Assembly: GCA_041737355.1 (NCBI GenBank)
Contig: JBGSRW010000008.1
Coordinates: 24,466-88,465, forward strand
Length of the DNA: 64,000 nucleotides
Reading direction: 5' to 3'
Source of the DNA: Patescibacteria group bacterium
GTDB taxonomy: Bacteria > Patescibacteriota > Patescibacteriia > XYB2-FULL-38-15
Under the pieces are notes generated by a model. The model did not search any database. It saw nothing but the letters and a program-made list of their open reading frames with translations, and was not told where the DNA came from. Both the position numbers and the translations under genes were made by a program. This document shows positions 238-40,814 of the stretch, piece after piece; the stretch's first letter is position 1, and every line of letters begins with the position of its first letter.

Positions 238-1866
238 ATGATTAAAAATTTGCTGAACGGAGAATCTAAAACAATTACCGGGGCTGCTCTTCTTTTGGGA
301 GCAGCTTCTTTGGCGTCCCGTTTTTTGGGAGTTATCCGCGACAGGGTTCTGGCCGGACAATTCGGGGCGGGCGATACTCTCGATGTTTATTACGCCGCCT
401 TCCGTATCCCTGATTTTATTTTCAATCTCCTGATTTTGGGCGCTCTCTCGGCCGGCTTCATTCCAATTTTTACCGCGGCGCTTTCTTCAGCGAAAGAGAG
501 GGGGGATAATTTTGGCAAGGCGTGGGATATCGTGAGCGGACTGATAAACATAATGGGCATTCTTTTAATTTTTCTTTGCGGTTTGTTTATCGTTTTAAGC
601 CCTTTTATTGTTCCGGTTATCACTCCTGGTTTTGGCGCGGAAAAAATGGCACTGACCGTGACAATGACCCAGATCATGATGCTTAGTCCGCTTTTTTTGG
701 GTTTGAGCAATATTTTCGGCGGAGTTCTCCAATCCTTCAAAAGATTTTTTATTTATTCCCTGGCTCCTATTTTTTATAATCTCGGTATTATTCTCGGAGC
801 TTTATTTTTTACCAAATGGTGGGGAATTTGCGGTTTGGCGGTCGGGGTAATTCTTGGGGCGATCGCCCATATGCTGATCCAGCTACCGGCTGTTGTTTCC
901 CTGGGTTACCGTTACCGGTGGATTTTCAATCTTGCCGACCAGAATGTCCGGCAAATCGGCCGGCTTATGATTCCCCGGACTCTCGGTCTGGCCGTTTCTC
1001 AAGTCAATCTGGTGGTGATGACAGTTATTGCCTCGACTCTTGTTCCGGGAAGTCTCGCCGTTTTTAATCTTGCCAACAATCTCCAATATTTTCCGATCGG
1101 AATCATCGGTATTTCTTTTGCCGTCGCCGCTTTTCCGGTTTTGGGGGAATGCGCGGCCGGCGGGCGAAAAGAGGAAATGGTTAAAAATTTTTCCCACTCC
1201 GTCCGGCAGATTTTGTTTTTTATCGTTCCAGCCGCTGTTCTGCTTTTGGTCTTGCGTGCCCAAATTGTTCGCGTTATTTTTGGATCGGGTGAATTTGATT
1301 GGGAGGATACGATTTTGACCGCCGATACTTTGGCTTTTTTTGTTACGAGTTTGTTTGCCCAAGCCCTGGTTCCGCTTCTTGCCAGATTTTTTTACGCGTT
1401 GCAAGATACTAAAACGCCCTTTTTTATTGGTTTATTTTCAGCCGTAGTTAATGTTTTTTTAGCAATATATATGGCCGAAAGATGGGGCGTGATCGGCCTG
1501 GCCGCGGCTTTTTCGGCTTCCAGTATTTTAAATTTTTGTCTTCTTTGGATTTTGCTGCGGGTAAAGTTCGGTTCGCTTGATGAGAAAAGGATTCTCGGTT
1601 CGGCATTTAAAATCAGCGTGGCCGCGGTTCTGATGGCGTTCAGTATCCAGGGCATGAAAGCCGCTCTCGCGCCATTCGTTGATATGCAGACTTTTTTGGG
1701 TATTTTTGGTCAAGGTTTGGGAGCCGGCTTGGTTGGCCTTATTGTTTTCGTTATTTCCGGATTTCTCCTCGGTTCAAGGGAAATGTTCGCGGTCCGCGAC
1801 GCGGTGAAGTACAAATTATTCAAAATAAAAAGGCCGATTATTAATGATGAGGAGGGGCAAAGGTAA
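238..1866 (+). CDS. murJ: lipid II flippase MurJ/MviN
   Basis: 542-aa polytopic membrane ORF. The N-terminus ASRFLGVIRDRVLAGQFGAGDTLDVYYAAFRIPDFIFNLL is typical of MurJ. Confidence 0.85.
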   Translation: MIKNLLNGESKTITGAALLLGAASLASRFLGVIRDRVLAGQFGAGDTLDVYYAAFRIPDFIFNLLILGALSAGFIPIFTAALSSAKERGDNFGKAWDIVSGLINIMGILLIFLCGLFIVLSPFIVPVITPGFGAEKMALTVTMTQIMMLSPLFLGLSNIFGGVLQSFKRFFIYSLAPIFYNLGIILGALFFTKWWGICGLAVGVILGAIAHMLIQLPAVVSLGYRYRWIFNLADQNVRQIGRLMIPRTLGLAVSQVNLVVMTVIASTLVPGSLAVFNLANNLQYFPIGIIGISFAVAAFPVLGECAAGGRKEEMVKNFSHSVRQILFFIVPAAVLLLVLRAQIVRVIFGSGEFDWEDTILTADTLAFFVTSLFAQALVPLLARFFYALQDTKTPFFIGLFSAVVNVFLAIYMAERWGVIGLAAAFSASSILNFCLLWILLRVKFGSLDEKRILGSAFKISVAAVLMAFSIQGMKAALAPFVDMQTFLGIFGQGLGAGLVGLIVFVISGFLLGSREMFAVRDAVKYKLFKIKRPIINDEEGQR

Positions 1867-3644
1867 TGCGGGAAAAAATTAGAAATTTTTGTATTATTGC
1901 TCATATTGATCACGGAAAGTCGACTTTAGCCGACCGTCTTTTGGAATTTACCGGAACGGTAGCTAGGCGGGATATGAAAGATCAAATGCTTGACATGATG
2001 GATCTTGAACGCGAAAGGGGAATTACCATCAAGCTTCAGCCGGTGCGCATGGATTACAAAGAACATATTTTAAATTTAATTGATACGCCAGGACACGTCG
2101 ATTTCAACTATGAAGTCTCTAGGTCACTTGCCGCCGTGGAAGGCGCGCTTCTTTTGGTTGATGCGACGCAAGGTGTCCAGGCCCAGACGCTCGGTAATTT
2201 ATATTTGGCACTGGAACAGAATCTAACAATCATTCCGGTAGTCAATAAAATTGATCTTAAAAATGCCGAAGTGGAAAAAACCGTCCAGGAAATTACCGCC
2301 CTGATCGGCTGCAAAAAGGAGGAGGTAATTTTGGCTTCGGGGAAAAGCGGGGCCGGAGTTCCGGAAATTTTGGAAGCAGTTGTTAATAAAGTTCCTTCGC
2401 CAAAAGGAGAAATAAGTAAACCGCTGAGGGCGTTGATTTTCGATTCAAAGTACGACGACTACAAGGGAGTCGTCGCTTATGTCAGAGTTGTGGACGGCGA
2501 AGTAAAAAGGGGGGATAAAATATATTTGGCGGCCACCAAAATCGAAAGCGAAGTTTTAGAGGTTGGATATTTTAAACCAAAGTTTGTTCCGGCCGGAAAA
2601 TTATCAGCCGGGGAAATCGGTTATATTGTGACCGGGCTCAAGGAAATAGAAAGATGCCGGGTCGGCGATACTATAACGGTTCACGATCCGGATCTGACAG
2701 TCCAAAGTTTACCGGGGTATAAAGAAGTTAAACCGATGGTTTTTGCCGGAATTTTTTGCAAGGAAGGGGACGATTTTCCGAAACTGCGCGAAGCAATTTT
2801 AAAATTAAAATTGAACGATGCGGCTCTGACTTTTGAAACCGAGCAGTCCAAGGCGCTCGGCTTCGGTTTTCGCTGCGGTCTTTTGGGTTTGTTGCATCTT
2901 GAAATTGTGGAAGAGCGTCTGCGGCGAGAACATAATCTTGACGTGATTGTTACCGTGCCGTCGGTAGCGTACCGTATTACCAACAATAAGGGAGAAGTGT
3001 TGATTATTAAAAGTCCGTCGGAATTGCCCGACATGAGCCATATCAAATTGATCGAAGAGCCGTGGATTAAAATTGATGTGGTTTCTCCGAGCACCTACAT
3101 CGGCGGTATCATGCAAATGGTGCAGGAAAAGAGGGGAGTATATATCGACACGGAATATTTGGATGCCGACCGGGTTATCTTGCATTATGAAATTCCTCTC
3201 TCGGCAATTCTTGTGGATTTTTACGATAAATTAAAAAGTGTGAGCTCCGGCTATGCTTCATTGAATTACGAATTTTTCGGATATAGGGAGGCCGATGTTT
3301 TGAAAATGGATATTTTGGTGGCGACCGAACCGGTTGAGGCGCTCGCGACAATCGTCTACCGCGACACGGCCCAGGATGTCGGGCGGAGAATTGTCCAGTC
3401 TTTAAAAAAAGTTTTGCCGCGCCAGATGTTTGAAGTTAAAATCCAGGCGGCGCTTGGCGGGAAAATTGTCGCCTCGGAACACTTGCCGGCGATGAAAAAG
3501 GATGTGACAGCCAAGCTTTATGGGGGAGATGTAACAAGAAAGAATAAATTGCTTGAAAAACAGAAAAAGGGCAAGAAAAAGATGAAAGCGTTGGGCAAAG
3601 TTGACATTCCACCTGAGGCATTTTTAGCGGTTCTGAAGAAATAG
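1866..3644 (+). CDS. lepA: translation elongation factor 4 (LepA)
   Basis: 592 aa with a GTPase G1 motif (AHIDHGKST) and DTPGHVDF. The C-terminal LepA-type domain is present. The ATG overlaps the murJ stop (TAATG). Confidence 0.95.
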   Translation: MREKIRNFCIIAHIDHGKSTLADRLLEFTGTVARRDMKDQMLDMMDLERERGITIKLQPVRMDYKEHILNLIDTPGHVDFNYEVSRSLAAVEGALLLVDATQGVQAQTLGNLYLALEQNLTIIPVVNKIDLKNAEVEKTVQEITALIGCKKEEVILASGKSGAGVPEILEAVVNKVPSPKGEISKPLRALIFDSKYDDYKGVVAYVRVVDGEVKRGDKIYLAATKIESEVLEVGYFKPKFVPAGKLSAGEIGYIVTGLKEIERCRVGDTITVHDPDLTVQSLPGYKEVKPMVFAGIFCKEGDDFPKLREAILKLKLNDAALTFETEQSKALGFGFRCGLLGLLHLEIVEERLRREHNLDVIVTVPSVAYRITNNKGEVLIIKSPSELPDMSHIKLIEEPWIKIDVVSPSTYIGGIMQMVQEKRGVYIDTEYLDADRVILHYEIPLSAILVDFYDKLKSVSSGYASLNYEFFGYREADVLKMDILVATEPVEALATIVYRDTAQDVGRRIVQSLKKVLPRQMFEVKIQAALGGKIVASEHLPAMKKDVTAKLYGGDVTRKNKLLEKQKKGKKKMKALGKVDIPPEAFLAVLKK

Positions 3645-3663
3645 ACTTAAAAGTTTAAAAGAG

Positions 3664-3695
3664 AAAAATCACCTGAGAATGGTGATTTTTTGTTT
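3664..3695 (+). terminator. intrinsic terminator after lepA
   Basis: Stem AAAAATCACC (3664-3673) pairs with GGTGATTTTT (3681-3690) and is followed by a T-rich tail. Confidence 0.7.
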
Positions 3696-3766
3696 ATTTA
3701 TGACAATTTATTTTGGCTAAAATAAGCCAAAAGATAGGATTATTTTAGAAATAGTGTCAAAAGCCC

Positions 3767-3795
3767 TTGACAAAATCTAAGATACGTGTTATACT
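3767..3795 (+). promoter_or_regulatory. consensus sigma70-type promoter of the GC-rich island
   Basis: TTGACA (3767-3772), a 17-nt spacer, then TATACT (3790-3795). The -35 context is CTTGACAAAATCT. Confidence 0.7.
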
Positions 3796-3859
3796 TACTT
3801 GTTAAGCTGAAATAGGCTTAAAATAAAAAAAGTGCTTGTCGTGTCAAGTTCTTTACAAA

Positions 3860-4044
3860 GTGCCAGAGAAATTTGGAGGAGGAAGTCTTCGCGGACCATT
3901 TATTGGTAACCGCGTGACTCGGTGTTCGGTTGAGTTAAAGCTCGGTTTTCCCGTTTGGGACTACTAAGATTCAACTCGCCAAAACGCCATTGCTGTTCCA
4001 ATGCTAATTGGAGCGGCGCGCTCACCTCCAAATTCCTCTGGCAC
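3860..4044 (+). promoter_or_regulatory. structured 5' leader domain closed by a 20-bp stem
   Basis: GTGCCAGAGAAATTTGGAGG (3860-3879) pairs with CCTCCAAATTCCTCTGGCAC (4025-4044) at 19 of 20 positions. The stem encloses about 145 nt with several local hairpins (for example CGCGGACCA..TGGTAACCGCG and CCAAT-GCTA-ATTGG). It lies between the promoter and the SD of the 4131 ORF. Confidence 0.55.
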
Positions 4045-4130
4045 ATCTCCGTGAAAAATCGGAGGGCCAAAGGTCAGACTGTGGATGTTCCCGGTCTGAT
4101 TTTAGTAAACGCAAATAAGGAGGTTTTCTG

Positions 4131-5384
4131 ATGGAGAACGGCAGCAAGGAGATTGTGGTTGGCAAGGAGCCGACGGCTACGGCCGAGGCGTTCCTCGAGC
4201 CGCCGAGCGAGGACGACGAGTGGTTGCTCCTGGATTTCAATCCGGCGGCGACCGAGTCCGCGCCGGCCGTGCCCGAGACGCCGAAGCCCAAGCCGCCGCG
4301 CGTCTGCGCGATCTGCCAGCACCCCTCCGGGAATTCGGTGGGCAAGATCAAGCGCGGGCGGATCGCCGAGGTCGAGCACGAAGGGATGAAGCTGCTCACG
4401 CTCGAACCAATCTGCGAACCGTGCGGCGAGAAGTTGCCGCCCGAGGAGCGGAAGAGGCTCTTCAAGGCGGGGTACCTCATCTCCCTGATCGGCGAGAAGA
4501 ACCGCGAGATGCGCGAGTTCGAGGCGGCCAAGGCCTACTGGGCTGCGGTCTTCGCCGGTACGGCAGAGCGGATGCCCGAGGCTCGCAAGACGCCCGAGGA
4601 GATGCTCTCCTGCGGGGTGCCCGGCTGCCCCCGCTGTCACGATCAGGTCGGCCACAAGGTCGGCCACTTCGTGGCGATGACGATCGGCGGCATGCCGACG
4701 CTTCTCGGGGTCTGCTCCTTCCAGGCCGCGGCCTTGGCACAGTGCGGGGTCGAAAAGAAGGGCATCGTCGTGACGACGAAGTTCTCCGTGGCCGCCCCGA
4801 TCGTCGAGGCGGAGAACGCCAGGCTCCAGGCCTTCGAGAAGGCCAAGAGTTTCTGGCTCGCCGTGGCCGAAGGCGAGGCGGCGGTCGAGGCGCGGGCCGA
4901 GAAGACCGAGCGCGGCGACATCTACCGCTGCGGCGTCCCCGGCTGCAAGTGCCGGGAGCACGGCGACCGGCCGGTCGACTACTTCGTGGTCTTGGACGGC
5001 CAGCCCGAGATGCCCATCGCGGGTGTCTGCCGATACCAGTATGCGGCGCTCCGGACCTCCGGGGTGAAGATCTTCGCCGCGAACAACAACGACGGGATGG
5101 GCCTCGCGCGGTGCGCCAAGCACCGCAACTGGCTCCTCGGCCAGGCCAAGAGGGCCATCCGCGACGTCCGGAGGCCGGACGGAATCGGCGGCGGTCTCTC
5201 CCGTTTCCGCTCGCCCGAAGAACAGGCGCGGATCCGCGAGGAGAAGCGCCGGACGTTCGAGGAGCGCGAGGCCAAGCGCCGCTCCCGGCAACTCGAGCGG
5301 GCCAAGGCCTCCTCCAGCAAGGCCGGCTGCGGCAAGAAGGCCAGCAGCAAGAAGGGCGGCAAGGGCGGCGGCAAGAAGCACTAG
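4131..5384 (+). CDS. orphan protein with three tandem Cys/His-rich modules and a Lys/Gly-rich C-terminal tail (gene A)
   Basis: SD AAGGAGG (4117-4123) sits 7 nt before the ATG. Codon third positions are GC-rich in this frame. The ORF has three repeated modules and the tail ...SSSKAGCGKKASSKKGGKGGGKKH. Confidence 0.7.
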   Translation: MENGSKEIVVGKEPTATAEAFLEPPSEDDEWLLLDFNPAATESAPAVPETPKPKPPRVCAICQHPSGNSVGKIKRGRIAEVEHEGMKLLTLEPICEPCGEKLPPEERKRLFKAGYLISLIGEKNREMREFEAAKAYWAAVFAGTAERMPEARKTPEEMLSCGVPGCPRCHDQVGHKVGHFVAMTIGGMPTLLGVCSFQAAALAQCGVEKKGIVVTTKFSVAAPIVEAENARLQAFEKAKSFWLAVAEGEAAVEARAEKTERGDIYRCGVPGCKCREHGDRPVDYFVVLDGQPEMPIAGVCRYQYAALRTSGVKIFAANNNDGMGLARCAKHRNWLLGQAKRAIRDVRRPDGIGGGLSRFRSPEEQARIREEKRRTFEEREAKRRSRQLERAKASSSKAGCGKKASSKKGGKGGGKKH

Positions 5385-5419
5385 CTGGCCGGCCGCTCTC
5401 CCACCAATTTGTTCTTTTC

Positions 5420-5542
5420 TTGGAGCAAGTAGTCTGTGCAATGCAGACACTGTTCGTCAATCACTCTAAGGTGAACGGCGACAGGATCTTGCTCCAAGTC
5501 CTTTTCCTCCAAATCAGCGTAAGTTGGTCTGGAGAAAAGGGA
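5420..5542 (+). repeat. 123-nt structured repeat, copy 1 (R1), just after the gene A stop
   Basis: Identical base for base to 6114-6236. It contains a perfect 10-bp closing helix, TTGGAGCAAG/CTTGCTCCAA, around two hairpins. A second imperfect hairpin of about 12 bp follows (5499-5542). Confidence 0.9.
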
Positions 5543-5597
5543 ATTAGCTCTTTGGCAATTTCGGCGCATAGCGCCGTAGAAAGAAAGGAGATAGTTG

Positions 5598-5930
5598 ATG
5601 GTTCAGGTTCTGATGCTGGCCCTGTTCAGCGTCGCCAAGCGCGACGAACGCGAGGCGAGCGACGAGGGCAGTGAGACCGACGCGGTCGAGCTGCCCGAGG
5701 ATTCGGTCAACTGGCGGGCGGTTCGTTGGCTGGGCGTCGCGAAGATGCCGCGCCGTCGGGGTGGTCGGGCGGCCAACCGTTGCCTTGCCGACATCCCGCC
5801 GCCACCGGTTCGTTTCTCGCGCGAAGGGTTTGACGGACTTCATTCGTGGAAGCGTCAGACTCCGGCCCGCCGTCAGTGGGCCAAGCATCTTCGGAAATCT
5901 TGGGGGCGCGGAAAGAAGGTGGAGGTATGA
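5598..5930 (+). CDS. orphan Arg-rich protein, 110 aa (gene B)
   Basis: SD AAGGAG (5585-5590) sits 7 nt before ATG 5598. Third positions are GC-rich. The stop overlaps the next start (ATGA at 5927-5930). Confidence 0.55.
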   Translation: MVQVLMLALFSVAKRDEREASDEGSETDAVELPEDSVNWRAVRWLGVAKMPRRRGGRAANRCLADIPPPPVRFSREGFDGLHSWKRQTPARRQWAKHLRKSWGRGKKVEV

Positions 5931-6106
5931 AGAAGGAGTGTCGCAAGAGCGTGCCGGAGGTCAAGACGGGAGAGGGTGTTTACATCCTCCGCGTCATGCC
6001 CCAGCCGTCCGTCTGCGCGCACGAGGCGGTCCGTCCCTCCACCCGGCCGATCATACGCTCCGCCATCAAGATCGTCGGCCAGCACGGCCGCGACTGTCTC
6101 CCATAG
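5927..6106 (+). CDS. orphan protein, 59 aa (gene C)
   Basis: ATG 5927 is preceded by GGTGGAGG and overlaps the gene B stop. Third positions are GC-rich. The ORF ends at TAG 6104-6106, directly before repeat copy 2. Confidence 0.5.
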   Translation: MKKECRKSVPEVKTGEGVYILRVMPQPSVCAHEAVRPSTRPIIRSAIKIVGQHGRDCLP

Positions 6107-6113
6107 TTTGTTC

Positions 6114-6236
6114 TTGGAGCAAGTAGTCTGTGCAATGCAGACACTGTTCGTCAATCACTCTAAGGTGAACGGCGACAGGATCTTGCTCCAAGTCCTTTTC
6201 CTCCAAATCAGCGTAAGTTGGTCTGGAGAAAAGGGA
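6114..6236 (+). repeat. 123-nt structured repeat, copy 2 (R2), just after the gene C stop
   Basis: 100% identical to 5420-5542. Weaker similarity extends upstream (CTCCCA..TTTGTTC). Confidence 0.9.
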
Positions 6237-6286
6237 TTCCAAAATTTTTTAGCCATTTTTACGGCTAGTCAGATCCCACGCAAGGG

Positions 6287-6315
6287 CACCGCCAGTTGGC
6301 GGTGTTTTTGTTTTT
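6287..6315 (+). terminator. intrinsic terminator closing the GC-rich island
   Basis: CACCGCC (6287-6293), loop AGTT, GGCGGTG (6298-6304), then TTTTTGTTTTT. Confidence 0.8.
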
Positions 6316-6321
6316 AAAATG

Positions 6322-6330
6322 TGCTATAAT
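6322..6330 (+). promoter_or_regulatory. extended -10 promoter (TGCTATAAT)
   Basis: An exact TGCTATAAT. The same 9-mer recurs at 8646, 16113, 17286, 26872 and 38529. Confidence 0.55.
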
Positions 6331-6360
6331 AGTCCAATATTTATTTTACGTAATGTTTTT

Positions 6361-6459
6361 ATGAAAAAGAAAAATTTGCAGAAAATAGTATGGATAATTG
6401 TCTCAGCTATTGTAGTTTTTTCCATGGTTGTCTGGACAATCGGGCCAATGCTGTATTAG
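6361..6459 (+). CDS. possible small hydrophobic protein (32 aa)
   Basis: ATG..TAG encodes MKKKNLQKIVWIIVSAIVVFSMVVWTIGPMLY, a single transmembrane-like segment, downstream of the 6322 promoter. There is no SD and it is too short for the ORF track. Confidence 0.3.
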   Translation: MKKKNLQKIVWIIVSAIVVFSMVVWTIGPMLY

Positions 6460-6489
6460 CCGCGGAGTTTGTAATTTGTTATTAAAAGT

Positions 6490-8220
6490 ATGAAGTGGAA
6501 AGTCGCCGAACCGATCAGCGAAGAATTCAGAAATAAATTTCCGGAGATCGATCCGGTTATTTTGCAATTACTCGCTAACCGTGGGGTAAAAACCCAGGAA
6601 CAGATTGATGAATTTCTGTATCCAGATTACGGGCCTGATATTCACGATCCGTTTTTATTTTTGGATATGGAAAAAGCGGTCGAGCGGGTTTTCCGGGCGG
6701 TGGAGAAAGGAGAAAAAATTACGGTTCATGGCGATTACGACGCCGACGGAGTTTGCTCGGCATTGATCGTAGTCAGTACGCTCGAAGCCATGGGTGCTAA
6801 AGCCGAGGTTTATCTGCCGCACCGCGAACTCGAAGGGTATGGACTGAATATGCAAACAGTTGAAGAGTTGGGGAAAAGAGGGACAAATCTTATTATTACA
6901 ACCGACTGCGGCATCAGTAATCGGGAAGAGATAAAAAGAGCGGTTGAACTTGGAATGGAAGTAATTGTCACCGACCATCATGCCGAGCCGCTTAATTTGC
7001 CCGAGGCAGCTTTGGCAATTATCAATCCCCATTTGGCGCGAGAAAAGTATCCTTTTAAGGAATTGTCCGGGGCGGGAGTAGCTTTCAAATTCGTTCAGGG
7101 GATTTTACATAAAATAAAAACAACGGCGCCAAAAATAGAATTCAGGGAAGACCCGGAGGGATTTGAAAAATGGCTTCTGGATCTTACGGCTATTGCCACG
7201 ATTGCCGACATCATGCCCCTCTTGGGCGAGAACCGGACGATCGTAAAATACGGCTTGATTGTCCTGAACAAAACCAAACGGCTGGGATTGAAAAAAATGA
7301 TTGATTCGCTGGGCTTGAACAAGGCAAAATTGCTTGACGCAAGAAACGTATCTTTTCAGATTAGTCCGCGGCTGAACGCGGCCGGCCGGATCGACCACGC
7401 CAACCAGGCCTATGAACTTTTAAAAACATCGGACGGGAACGAAGTTGATAAATTGGTCGCGGCCCTGAATAAAACCAACGAAGACAGGCAAGCGCTTTCC
7501 GAGCGCGTAACGGCCGAAGCCAAGGAGAAAATAGGAGAAGAGGTTGGCGAAAGAAAAGTTTTGTTCGCCGTGGGTAAGGGTTGGCCGATAGGTATTGTCG
7601 GATTGGTAGCCGGGAAAATAGCCGATAATTTATGGCGGCCGACTTTTATTATGGCAGAAAAAGAGGGGAACATTATGGGGTCGGGAAGGAGTATTCCGGA
7701 ATTTGATATTATGGAAGGGCTCAGGGAGGCGAAAGAATTTTTGTCACATTACGGCGGACACGCCGGAGCCTGCGGATTTACCCTGAAAAATAAAAAAGAT
7801 CTGAAGAGGTTTGAAAAGACCCTGGAGAAATTTGCTGAAAAAAAATTAGCCGGCTCGGAACTTGTCCCAAGCCTGAATATTGACTCGGAAGTTAAACTGG
7901 AAAAAATAAATTGGGAGCTTTTCGAGCTCTTGGAAAAATTTTCACCATTCGGGAAGGGGAATGAGCGGCCGAGATATTTGGGGAGGGGTTTGACGGTCGA
8001 AAGCTTTGAAGGGGTGGGAAATAATGGAAATCATTTACGCATAAATTTGAGCCACGAAAACGGCCAAAAGAAAAAATTTATAGGTTTTTGTTTTGGAAGC
8101 TGGTGCGAGAAATTAAAAGCGGGAGATAAAATTGATGTAGTTTTTGAAATTGATGTTAATGAATGGAACGGGAACAGGGAACTGCAGATGAAAATTATTG
8201 ATTTAAAACATAGCGAATAA
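6490..8220 (+). CDS. recJ: single-stranded-DNA-specific exonuclease RecJ
   Basis: 576 aa with DHH-family motifs (HGDYDADGVCS, TTDCG, VTDHH) and a DHHA1-like GGHAGACG. Confidence 0.9.
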   Translation: MKWKVAEPISEEFRNKFPEIDPVILQLLANRGVKTQEQIDEFLYPDYGPDIHDPFLFLDMEKAVERVFRAVEKGEKITVHGDYDADGVCSALIVVSTLEAMGAKAEVYLPHRELEGYGLNMQTVEELGKRGTNLIITTDCGISNREEIKRAVELGMEVIVTDHHAEPLNLPEAALAIINPHLAREKYPFKELSGAGVAFKFVQGILHKIKTTAPKIEFREDPEGFEKWLLDLTAIATIADIMPLLGENRTIVKYGLIVLNKTKRLGLKKMIDSLGLNKAKLLDARNVSFQISPRLNAAGRIDHANQAYELLKTSDGNEVDKLVAALNKTNEDRQALSERVTAEAKEKIGEEVGERKVLFAVGKGWPIGIVGLVAGKIADNLWRPTFIMAEKEGNIMGSGRSIPEFDIMEGLREAKEFLSHYGGHAGACGFTLKNKKDLKRFEKTLEKFAEKKLAGSELVPSLNIDSEVKLEKINWELFELLEKFSPFGKGNERPRYLGRGLTVESFEGVGNNGNHLRINLSHENGQKKKFIGFCFGSWCEKLKAGDKIDVVFEIDVNEWNGNRELQMKIIDLKHSE

Positions 8221-8226
8221 TTTTTT

Positions 8227-8637
8227 ATGGCACATAACAAGGTGCAAATTTATACCGACGGCGGGGCGCGGGGTAACCCCGGGCCGGCCGGAATCGGTGT
8301 CGTAATCTGGGATGGCAATAATTTGGTTGGAAGATATAAAAAATATTTGGGTGTGGCAACCAACAATCAGGCCGAATATAAGGCGGTAATTTTGGCGCTC
8401 GAGGAGGCGAAAAAAATCGGCGTTTCGGAATTGGAATTTTTTCTGGATAGTGAACTTGTCGTGAAACAGTTACGCCAGGAATACAAAGTTAAAGACAAGG
8501 AATTGGCGCCACTTTTTGTCCAGGCCTGGAATTTGGGTTTTAGTTTCAAAAAAATCACTTATACACATATCCCGCGGGAAAAAAATAAAGACGCGGATAA
8601 GTTAGTGAATGAGGCGATTGACGGCGGGACGCAATAG
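8227..8637 (+). CDS. rnhA: ribonuclease HI
   Basis: 136 aa with YTDGGARGNPGPAGIGVV...NNQAEYKAVILALEEA...DSELVV..., the RNase H fold catalytic pattern. Confidence 0.85.
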   Translation: MAHNKVQIYTDGGARGNPGPAGIGVVIWDGNNLVGRYKKYLGVATNNQAEYKAVILALEEAKKIGVSELEFFLDSELVVKQLRQEYKVKDKELAPLFVQAWNLGFSFKKITYTHIPREKNKDADKLVNEAIDGGTQ

Positions 8638-39947: not shown

Positions 39948-40814
39948 ATGCAAAAAAAGGAGATGTCTCCTGAAAGTGTGAGCGAGTGCGCTCGTCTGAC
40001 TGAAGCGGAACTGGCCAACTTGGGCGTTGTCCTTTCCGCCTACCGTTCTTTCCGAGGCGACCGGCGTCGACATATCGCCTACGTCACGATGCCGATCACG
40101 ACCGGCCGGCGGTTGCGCGACATCCTGACAACGCGCCACGCGAAGAGCGCCGCAGAACTTGCGGCCAAAATCGGCAGAGAGGCCTTTTTTGACCTCGTGA
40201 TCAGACCAAACATCGCGGAGGGAATTGCTTTTGCCGACAGAGTCGCAGCAAGGGATTCACTGCTTTGCGTTGCGCCTTCGGTGTTCAGTGCCAGGTGCTG
40301 GCAATGGTCGCAGGATGCCTACATGTCCCTTTGGTACCGCGTTCTGGGAGAAATGGCCGGAGCGCATTATCTCATGGACGGCTGGGAATACTCCGTCGGC
40401 GGCGTGAAAGAAGCGATGTTTTCCATGGCCATGCAGTGGCGCATCTTCCGGCGCTACAACATCCACAAGATGGCGCAGGCCTGGGGTCTAGAGAATTTTC
40501 ATCCCGGCATGAGCCCGCAAGCGGAAATAGCCGAGCTTGAGCGCATGTGGAGCATCCGCCTTTACGACGAACAGGGCAAGGAACTTCGCATCGATCAAAT
40601 CCTGGCGATGGTTGTTCGCGCAATCAAGGAGCTGGCAAAAAACGGCTTGCCGTACGAGGATCTGCTCGGCCCCGCCCGGAACCTGAAGGGGATGCCCATA
40701 CTGTCACCGCTTATCGGCGGCGGCAACCGGTATGACGAGCCGTTTGTTCCGGAAGTGACGGATGCGTACGTGATGGCGGCAGATGAGCTCGTGGCATTCG
40801 AGGCCGCCCATTAA
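39948..40814 (+). CDS. nucleoside 2-deoxyribosyltransferase-like (DUF4406-like) domain protein with an unknown C-terminal domain, GC-rich
   Basis: IAYVTMPITTG ... W.QDAYMSLWYRVLGEMAGAHYLMDGWEYSVGGVKEAMFSMAM fits my recollection of the DUF4406 pattern (hYhAGPhoG ... GWE.S.G...E...A). SD is AAAGGAGGGAGGG. Confidence 0.55.
   Translation: MQKKEMSPESVSECARLTEAELANLGVVLSAYRSFRGDRRRHIAYVTMPITTGRRLRDILTTRHAKSAAELAAKIGREAFFDLVIRPNIAEGIAFADRVAARDSLLCVAPSVFSARCWQWSQDAYMSLWYRVLGEMAGAHYLMDGWEYSVGGVKEAMFSMAMQWRIFRRYNIHKMAQAWGLENFHPGMSPQAEIAELERMWSIRLYDEQGKELRIDQILAMVVRAIKELAKNGLPYEDLLGPARNLKGMPILSPLIGGGNRYDEPFVPEVTDAYVMAADELVAFEAAH

Follow-up and report, generated by a model that had tools for sequence, protein, structure and literature searches.

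The DNA analysed here is a stretch of 64,000 nucleotides (nt) from a Patescibacteria group bacterium (contig JBGSRW010000008.1, positions 24,466–88,465), referred to below as the window. Between lepA (1866–3644) and recJ (6490–8220) lies a GC island at 4.1–6.1 kb, of about 66–72% GC against about 44% elsewhere, which is the only strong island in the window. It carries three orphan genes on the plus strand, A (4131–5384), B (5598–5930) and C (5927–6106), the start of C overlapping the stop of B (ATGA). They belong to a unit that runs promoter, leader, terminator-like hairpin, A, copy 1 of a repeated element, linker, B, C, copy 2 of the element, hairpin and terminator. This repeated element is our subject.

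The two copies, at 5417–5542 and 6111–6236 on the plus strand, agree at all of their 126 nt (100% identity) and are spaced 694 apart. A first-pass annotation of the window had described a perfect repeat of 123 nt; the repeat is real and three bases longer. The weaker similarity that it had placed upstream (TCTCCCA...TTTGTTC) is present as well, starting 13 nt past the gene A stop and overlapping the final two codons of gene C. Copy 1 begins 34 nt past the stop of gene A (5384) and copy 2 begins 6 nt past the stop of gene C (6106). A 78-nt core, searched with up to 3 mismatches, matched twice in the 64-kb window, compared with no match in 100 shuffles.

Each copy folds into a three-way junction, in which P1 closes P2 and P3, followed by a long hairpin, P4, that abuts P1. 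These helices lie at 5419–5429/5488–5498 (P1), 5432–5448 (P2), 5450–5484 (P3) and 5499–5542 (P4) in copy 1, and at 6113–6123/6182–6192, 6126–6142, 6144–6178 and 6193–6236, respectively, in copy 2. P1 has 11 bp (CTTGGAGCAAG/CTTGCTCCAAG), P2 has 6 bp and the loop GCAAU (GTCTGT-GCAAT-GCAGAC), and P3 has the form CTGT.CGTC...GGCGACAG. With short flanks, copy 1 folded at −62 kcal/mol on the plus strand (z = −6.2, 0 of 200 shuffles as good); the minus strand gave z = −3.6. Every helix that had earlier been drawn on paper is found in the minimum-free-energy fold, and covariation further backs the drawing.

Covariation was assessed in a model-guided alignment of 19 distinct element copies from syntenic Patescibacteria loci. 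Standard pairs filled 96.6% of the cells, compared with 41–46% when the partners were slid by 1–3 columns. Double compensatory changes were found at 24 of 45 pairs, compared with 9.1 ± 1.9 in shuffles, none of the 500 shuffles reaching 24, and a separate RNAalifold run on a plain MAFFT alignment found 16 compensatory pairs among 41. The covariation lies mostly in P2, P3 and P4. No variation occurs at 9 of the 11 P1 pairs or in the P2 loop GCAAU; this constancy of primary sequence points to recognition by sequence in addition to pairing. About 60 cells of the alignment hold G-U pairs that would be mismatches if read on the opposite strand, which assigns the fold to the sense strand. A GNRA tetraloop stands at the P3 apex in 17 of the 19 copies, the exceptions being both window copies (CUAA) and locus L011 (GAAG). 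The J3/1 connector, GAU in one copy type and UCCG in the other, is not conserved between types, and the P4 apex accommodates insertions of 34 nt in L001 and about 100 nt in L009 and L011. These large insertions are lineage-specific (columns 93–165 of the alignment): that of L001 (7386–7436) consists of 34 nt of (A)TGCGAAT-like repeats, and that of L009 and L011 (for example L011 3255–3360) is GC-rich. Supported covariation and a consistent gene context, as in conserved cis-acting RNA motifs generally, are thus both found. The element is almost certainly a structured RNA, and the comparative alignments place its fold under strong purifying selection, read from the sense strand.

Relatives were gathered from contigs encoding homologs of protein A and by pattern scans with the P1–P2 core over genome and metagenome collections, which yielded 27 loci, about 15 of them distinct. 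All pattern matches were Patescibacteria assemblies or metagenome contigs, and all stood in the slot murJ-lepA-[leader-A-element]-recJ-rnhA. The same pattern had no match in the viral collection; a phage, plasmid or viral origin was rejected, as neither pattern nor protein searches matched anything in IMG/VR, INPHARED or PLSDB. In the syntenic loci the element always sits 3′ of A-family or C genes, in one copy where A alone is present and in two where B and C are present. P1 starts 3–93 nt past the stop codon of a GC-rich open reading frame (ORF) in 17 of 17 cases examined, so the spacing is not fixed. Extra hairpins of the GTCATTGCG...CGCAATGAC type occur between the stop codon and P1 in L021 (2945–3023) and L024 (2122–2146); they resemble small palindromic mobile repeats and contain the hexamer GCAATG, as in the P2 loop region.

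An extragenic position just after stop codons, which the element has in all 17 cases, is also a property of repetitive extragenic palindromic (REP) sequences and bacterial interspersed mosaic elements (BIMEs). A covariance model built from the element copies scored copy 1 at 138.6 bits and found no further match in the window or the gathered loci beyond the known copies, and the P1–P2 core scans gave one or two matches per contig, also on contigs of 150 kb and 567 kb. The element is therefore locus-specific, and a dispersed repeat of the REP/BIME type is rejected. Rfam 15 gave no match in the whole window at gathering thresholds and only noise at E ≤ 10 over 3600–6500 (≤ 22 bits, E ≥ 2). The first-pass annotation had named a dispersed repeat and a known RNA family as outcomes that would undo its proposal; we found two copies in the window, one locus per relative and no known family. 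Literature searches found no description of the locus. As far as Rfam 15 and these searches show, the element is a new structured RNA family within the broad class of cis-acting messenger RNA (mRNA) structures.

The strength of selection was gauged against the neighbouring genes. The lepA and recJ proteins are 80–93% identical between genomes, and 57–73% of their synonymous sites differ, near saturation. In the same genomes protein A is only 36–58% identical, the element 77–95% and the leader 75–90%. Both RNAs, element and leader, are therefore under strong purifying selection.

The identity of the two window copies is best read beside the other loci that carry B-C with two elements, L001, L017 and L007. 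The second copies of these three loci cluster apart, with 62–69% identity to any first copy; they share the sequence GCAGTCCGCGC...GCGGA, a different P3 and the UCCG connector, and keep every helix through compensatory changes. By sequence, these second copies represent an old paralog, distinct from the first. Window copy 2 has a body of the first-copy type, which groups with window copy 1 and with copy 1 of L017, and is followed by a flank (TTTTTTAGCC...GGCACCGCC...GGCGGTGTTTTTG) that matches the one downstream of the L017 second copy. The spacer just upstream of window copy 2 (TTTGTTC) is of the first-copy type in place of the ancestral ...CTTTCTTTCCAACATC, synonymous changes bring the final two codons of gene C closer to the sequence upstream of copy 1, and the derived CUAA loop is common to both window copies. 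This pattern very probably records a recent gene conversion in which copy 2 non-reciprocally received the sequence of copy 1, over a tract that spans at least 6104–6236 and probably reaches upstream to about 6094–6104. Recent duplication, gene conversion and strong selection had all been offered for the zero divergence; comparison with the relatives picks gene conversion, with the copies identical because copy 1 recently overwrote copy 2. Since this overwrite was tolerated, the result suggests that the two diverged paralogs are functionally interchangeable.

A lepA neighbour-joining tree split the loci into two clades, one with every B-C carrier and one with every single-copy locus. One gain or loss of the segment linker-B-C-element is enough to explain this, so there is no evidence for recurrent excision; the patchy distribution first suspected resolves to the single carrier clade, and recurrent B-C excision was rejected. 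Single-copy loci join a first-copy-type body to a second-copy-type downstream flank. In L021 the gene order is an A::B fusion, C, a first-copy-type element and a second B, and the junction of this rearrangement lies inside ORFs, not at the element. The earlier suggestion that the repeats make B-C excisable or amplifiable by recombination thus draws weak support from the rearranged or duplicated B module of L021; the position of the junction and the sufficiency of a single gain or loss speak against it.

The element is flanked by further conserved features, all on the plus strand. A TG-extended sigma-70-type promoter, TTGACA-17-TATACT (3767–3795), matches the consensus at 11 of 12 positions and is nearly invariant in nine orthologous loci. 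The multi-branch leader RNA of ~185 nt (3860–4044; fold z = −8.8) has an invariant closing helix of ~20 bp. RNAalifold on nine sequences of the leader found compensatory double changes at 21 of 75 pairs, Rfam gives no match to it, and it carries insertions at one variable spot in L001, L004, L011 and L013. Before the ribosome-binding site of gene A stands a terminator-like hairpin, AAGGTCAGAC...GGTCTGATTTT (4070–4103), a possible attenuator whose stem and U-run are conserved in all loci. Leader and hairpin together look like a riboswitch or a protein-controlled attenuator, the RNA itself being novel. Between copy 1 and gene B, the linker at 5543–5597, with a small hairpin CGGCGC-ATA-GCGCCG (5562–5576) and the Shine-Dalgarno sequence of gene B, is highly conserved in L001, L007, L017 and L021; it may hold a processing site and provide the B-C module with its 5′ hairpin. 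Downstream of copy 2, a small conserved hairpin TAGCC-ATTTTTAC-GGCTA (6250–6267) has a compensatory variant TAGTC...GACTA in L004 and L027. The intrinsic terminator of the operon, read from the sequence as CACCGCC-AGTT-GGCGGTG followed by TTTTTGTTTTT (6287–6315), is conserved in orthologous loci.

Two apparent links between leader and element were rejected. Long-range pairing of the leader 5′ strand (3871–3889) with the 5′ strand of P4 fails because this P4 strand covaries with the strand that it pairs with in the hairpin and, in relatives, no longer complements the invariant leader. The UUGGAG/CUCCAA and GAGAAA boxes common to the leader closing helix and P1/P4 were taken as coincidence, the second box being unconserved and the element model missing the leader. 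Between the operon terminator and recJ, a hydrophobic mini-ORF of 32 aa (MKKKNLQKIVWIIVSAIVVFSMVVWTIGPMLY; 6361–6459), with its own extended −10 box TGCTATAAT at about 6323–6331, is conserved in L001, L024 and L027. In one lineage only, L004, a DUF559/MTES_1575 gene (Vsr-like endonuclease fold; 7790–8125) lies between the element's terminator and recJ.

Protein A is a 417-aa orphan with three Cys-rich repeats and a Lys/Gly-rich basic tail. The repeats are conserved among its eight close homologs, and a profile search against 1.84 billion protein representatives retrieved only 17 relatives; no exact match was found in the contig index. On this comparative evidence gene A encodes a real protein. 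Protein B is an Arg/Lys-rich orphan of 110 aa, with orthologs 46–71% identical and a ratio of non-synonymous to synonymous divergence (dN/dS) of 0.4–0.5, and protein C is an orphan of 59 aa. None of the three has a match in Pfam, PHROGs, PADLOC, NCBIfam or PDB sequences, and an AlphaFold (AF2) model of A (predicted local distance difference test score, pLDDT, 74) has no PDB fold match at E ≤ 0.001. In P0008 (L021 1752–3370) the first two A repeats are fused in frame to a B-like C-terminus, which suggests that A and B act together. The remote A-family genes of L025 and L026, which stand in other genomic contexts, lack the element; because their 5′ and 3′ flanks also fold strongly (z = −4.5 and −4.9), the layout of structured RNA, GC-rich coding sequence and structured RNA seems to be a trait of the family.

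The GC content at third codon positions (GC3) is 0.93 in gene A and 0.78–0.96 across the A family, including the remote relatives, compared with 0.39–0.53 in neighbouring housekeeping genes (surveyed in the window plus L001, L004, L007, L020, L022 and L024–L027); the genome of the window stands at about 0.48 and the genomes of the family at about 0.45. The enrichment is limited to coding sequence, the intergenic RNA elements being of normal GC. Non-synonymous divergence of the operon's proteins is 5–8 times that of lepA. The dN/dS of A and C is 0.7–0.9, which does not amount to evidence of positive selection: dS is underestimated because synonymous sites are effectively two-state at a GC3 of about 0.93. 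Selection for RNA structure inside the coding region was considered as a cause of the high GC3; the mean z there is −0.8 to −2.2, compared with about 0 for lepA, and is inconsistent between orthologs. Codon or mRNA selection, biased conversion and a foreign expression context are all candidate causes of the high GC3. A milder second GC bump (about 56%) at 39948–40814 covers a 288-aa ORF of unknown function and is unlike the A-B-C island.

We propose that the element is a cis-acting module of the mRNA. It would be transcribed in sense together with the genes of a single operon, promoter-leader-A-[element]-B-C-[element]-terminator. An endonuclease cutting within the conserved AU-rich linker past copy 1 would then yield an A message, running from leader to element, and a B-C message, running from the 5′ hairpin to the element. 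Each message would be capped by the same compact fold, which would block 3′-to-5′ exonucleases and display its unchanging P1/P2 surface for recognition by a specific RNA-binding protein; A and B, the basic, Cys-rich proteins of the operon itself, would be the best candidates for the binder. A cis-acting 3′ module is favoured because the element is read from the sense strand, lies 3′ of each cistron block, is interchangeable between its two positions and, in the two-copy clade, is accompanied by a conserved linker and a small hairpin before B. The whole statement, that this is a new locus-specific structured RNA, homogenised by gene conversion and acting as a cis 3′ module of the A and B-C blocks, we hold at a probability of roughly 0.5. 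The narrower assignment as a 3′-end stabiliser or protein-binding module on the mRNA is tentative and somewhat less probable than the statement as a whole.

Several points weigh against this proposal. Co-transcription, processing and the 3′ ends are all read from sequence. To block exonucleases, a simple hairpin would be enough, and copy 2 already has a true terminator behind it; stabilisation alone therefore leaves the three-way junction and the invariant P1 unexplained. No RNA-binding domain is recognisable in protein A, B or C with the databases searched above (sequence databases for all three, PDB folds for A). The remote A-family members lack the element, so A is not strictly dependent on it. 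As to the shared history of the copies, gene conversion between sequences only about 70% identical is mechanistically inefficient, and indels in the upstream spacer may point to a replacement of a more complex kind. Coupling to translation by way of a fixed distance from stop codon to P1 was also considered for the element and rejected, the spacers ranging over 3–93 nt.

A much more speculative extension treats the element, the leader and the hyper-GC3 coding regions as one "armoured", self-recognising mRNA, in which A and B would bind the invariant helices of the leader and the 3′ elements and stabilise or package the message. The foreign-looking codon usage (GC3 about 0.9 family-wide) would then reflect tuning of the RNA, or of its product, to a high-GC partner organism of these episymbiotic bacteria. 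We regard this as a long shot, though it would link the three odd features of the locus.

Five rival explanations were weighed against the cis-acting 3′ module, and all five fail at least one test made here. The one that survives best, while still improbable, is a trans-acting small RNA, derived from the 3′ untranslated region or from its own transcript, that would act by base pairing or protein sequestration with P1/P2 as its functional surface. Small RNAs derived from 3′ untranslated regions are common in bacteria, a general frequency that counts in its favour, as does a primary-sequence invariance of P1 and the P2 loop that exceeds structural need. However, neither copy has a promoter upstream and copy 1 is followed by no terminator; the invariant nucleotides are mostly paired in P1 rather than free as a seed; and position and copy number track the cistron modules.

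Slightly less probable is punctuation by a transfer RNA (tRNA) mimic, in which the junction would be cut by RNase P and/or RNase Z, parting the message of A from that of B-C in the manner of mitochondrial tRNA punctuation or MALAT1 mascRNA. The element directly follows cistrons, its 11-bp closing helix with connectors of 2 nt and 1 nt resembles an acceptor stem, and a conserved linker follows copy 1. The resemblance to tRNA spacing raised in the first-pass annotation nevertheless did not hold up. ARAGORN found no tRNA or transfer-messenger RNA gene in the window, and Rfam gave no match in the tRNA clan even at E ≤ 10. Only P2 and P3 lie inside P1, with P4 outside the junction, so the consensus structure has three arms and neither a T-arm nor a T-loop. 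The J3/1 connector varies between copy types as described above, and the nucleotides 3′ of P1 are paired in P4, which leaves no free NCCA-like tail.

A DNA recombination site of the attC kind, at which B-C with its element would be inserted or excised as a cassette, is again less likely. It would fit an element that ends each module, the presence of B-C and the second element in one clade and their absence from the other, the joining of a first-copy body to a second-copy downstream flank in single-copy loci, the invariant inverted repeats formed by the P1 arms and the rearranged B module of L021. Against it, the bottom-strand folding expected of attC is not seen, G-U pairs and fold energies favouring the sense strand. 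No integron integrase or attI was found near the element; no recombinase domain occurs among the called genes of the about 15 syntenic loci, the remaining window not having been scanned. The sequence has no RYYYAAC/GTTRRRY core sites (R″/R′) at the element boundaries, a single gain or loss explains the distribution, and the L021 junction falls inside ORFs. Nor does a retron reverse transcriptase stand beside the element in any locus; the RVT_3 match at 8227–8637 is an RNase H-type housekeeping protein.

The next rival, quite unlikely, has the element set how much A is expressed relative to B-C, as a transcriptional attenuator, a terminator or a ligand-sensing switch. Copy 1 does lie between A and B, and the leader already has a terminator-like hairpin. 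But P4 is followed by AUUAGC... in copy 1 and by UUCCAAAA... in copy 2, with no U-tract of the kind that marks an intrinsic terminator, and it is absent from the list of a terminator consensus scan, which also omits the real terminator at 6287–6315. The element also stands at the operon end before that terminator and in single-gene loci, where attenuation would be purposeless, and the apex of P4 can take up insertions of between 34 and about 100 nt. Finally, an assembly artefact, chance, or a REP-like repeat without specific function, which the origin of the window in a metagenome-assembled genome might invite and which the first-pass annotation had raised as a way for the duplication to fail, is extremely improbable, since the A-element-B-C-element architecture is reproduced in the independent assemblies L001, L007 and L017, an assembler would not make a perfect copy from one about 70% identical, and the covariation shows selection on a locus-specific element.

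These results add a well-supported structured RNA family to Patescibacteria, a phylum whose non-coding RNA repertoire is barely charted, and provide a clean natural case of intra-locus gene conversion homogenising a functional RNA. The perfect identity of the copies has an ordinary explanation; the leader, the family-wide GC3 and the fast protein evolution are the more surprising features. If A or B binds the element, the operon would hold a new RNA-protein system restricted to these bacteria.

The element invites comparison with four kinds of known systems. Integron attC sites are likewise structured imperfect palindromes placed right after each module's stop codon, with structure partly better conserved than sequence and modules present or absent between genomes. 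The element differs from them in its lack of integrase, attI and R″/R′ cores, its sense-strand fold with G-U pairs, its fixed chromosomal locus and the evidence for a single gain or loss only. The tRNA-like 3′ elements (mitochondrial tRNA punctuation, MALAT1 mascRNA and the tRNA-like structures of plant viruses) share with it a multi-arm junction, a long closing helix and a position 3′ of coding units, and both possibly define RNA ends; unlike them, the element has no T-arm, no match to tRNA detectors or covariance models, no free 3′ tail and no conserved connectors. Autoregulatory protein-binding mRNA structures, such as the leaders of ribosomal-protein operons, are also operon-specific and strongly conserved, with invariant nucleotides and small basic proteins encoded in the operon. 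Those leaders lie 5′, mimic ribosomal RNA sites and act on translation or termination, whereas the element lies 3′ of its genes and has candidate binders only. The stem-loops that stabilise mRNA, such as the REP/BIME sequences of Escherichia coli malEFG and the intercistronic hairpins of Rhodobacter puf, follow stop codons, as the element does, both between cistrons and at the end of the operon; they too are strand-specific stable RNAs, thought to block 3′ exonucleases and to set the relative stability of operon segments. In contrast to these simple hairpins, of which REPs exist in hundreds of dispersed copies, the element combines a three-way junction and a hairpin with invariant sequence features, at one locus and in one or two copies.

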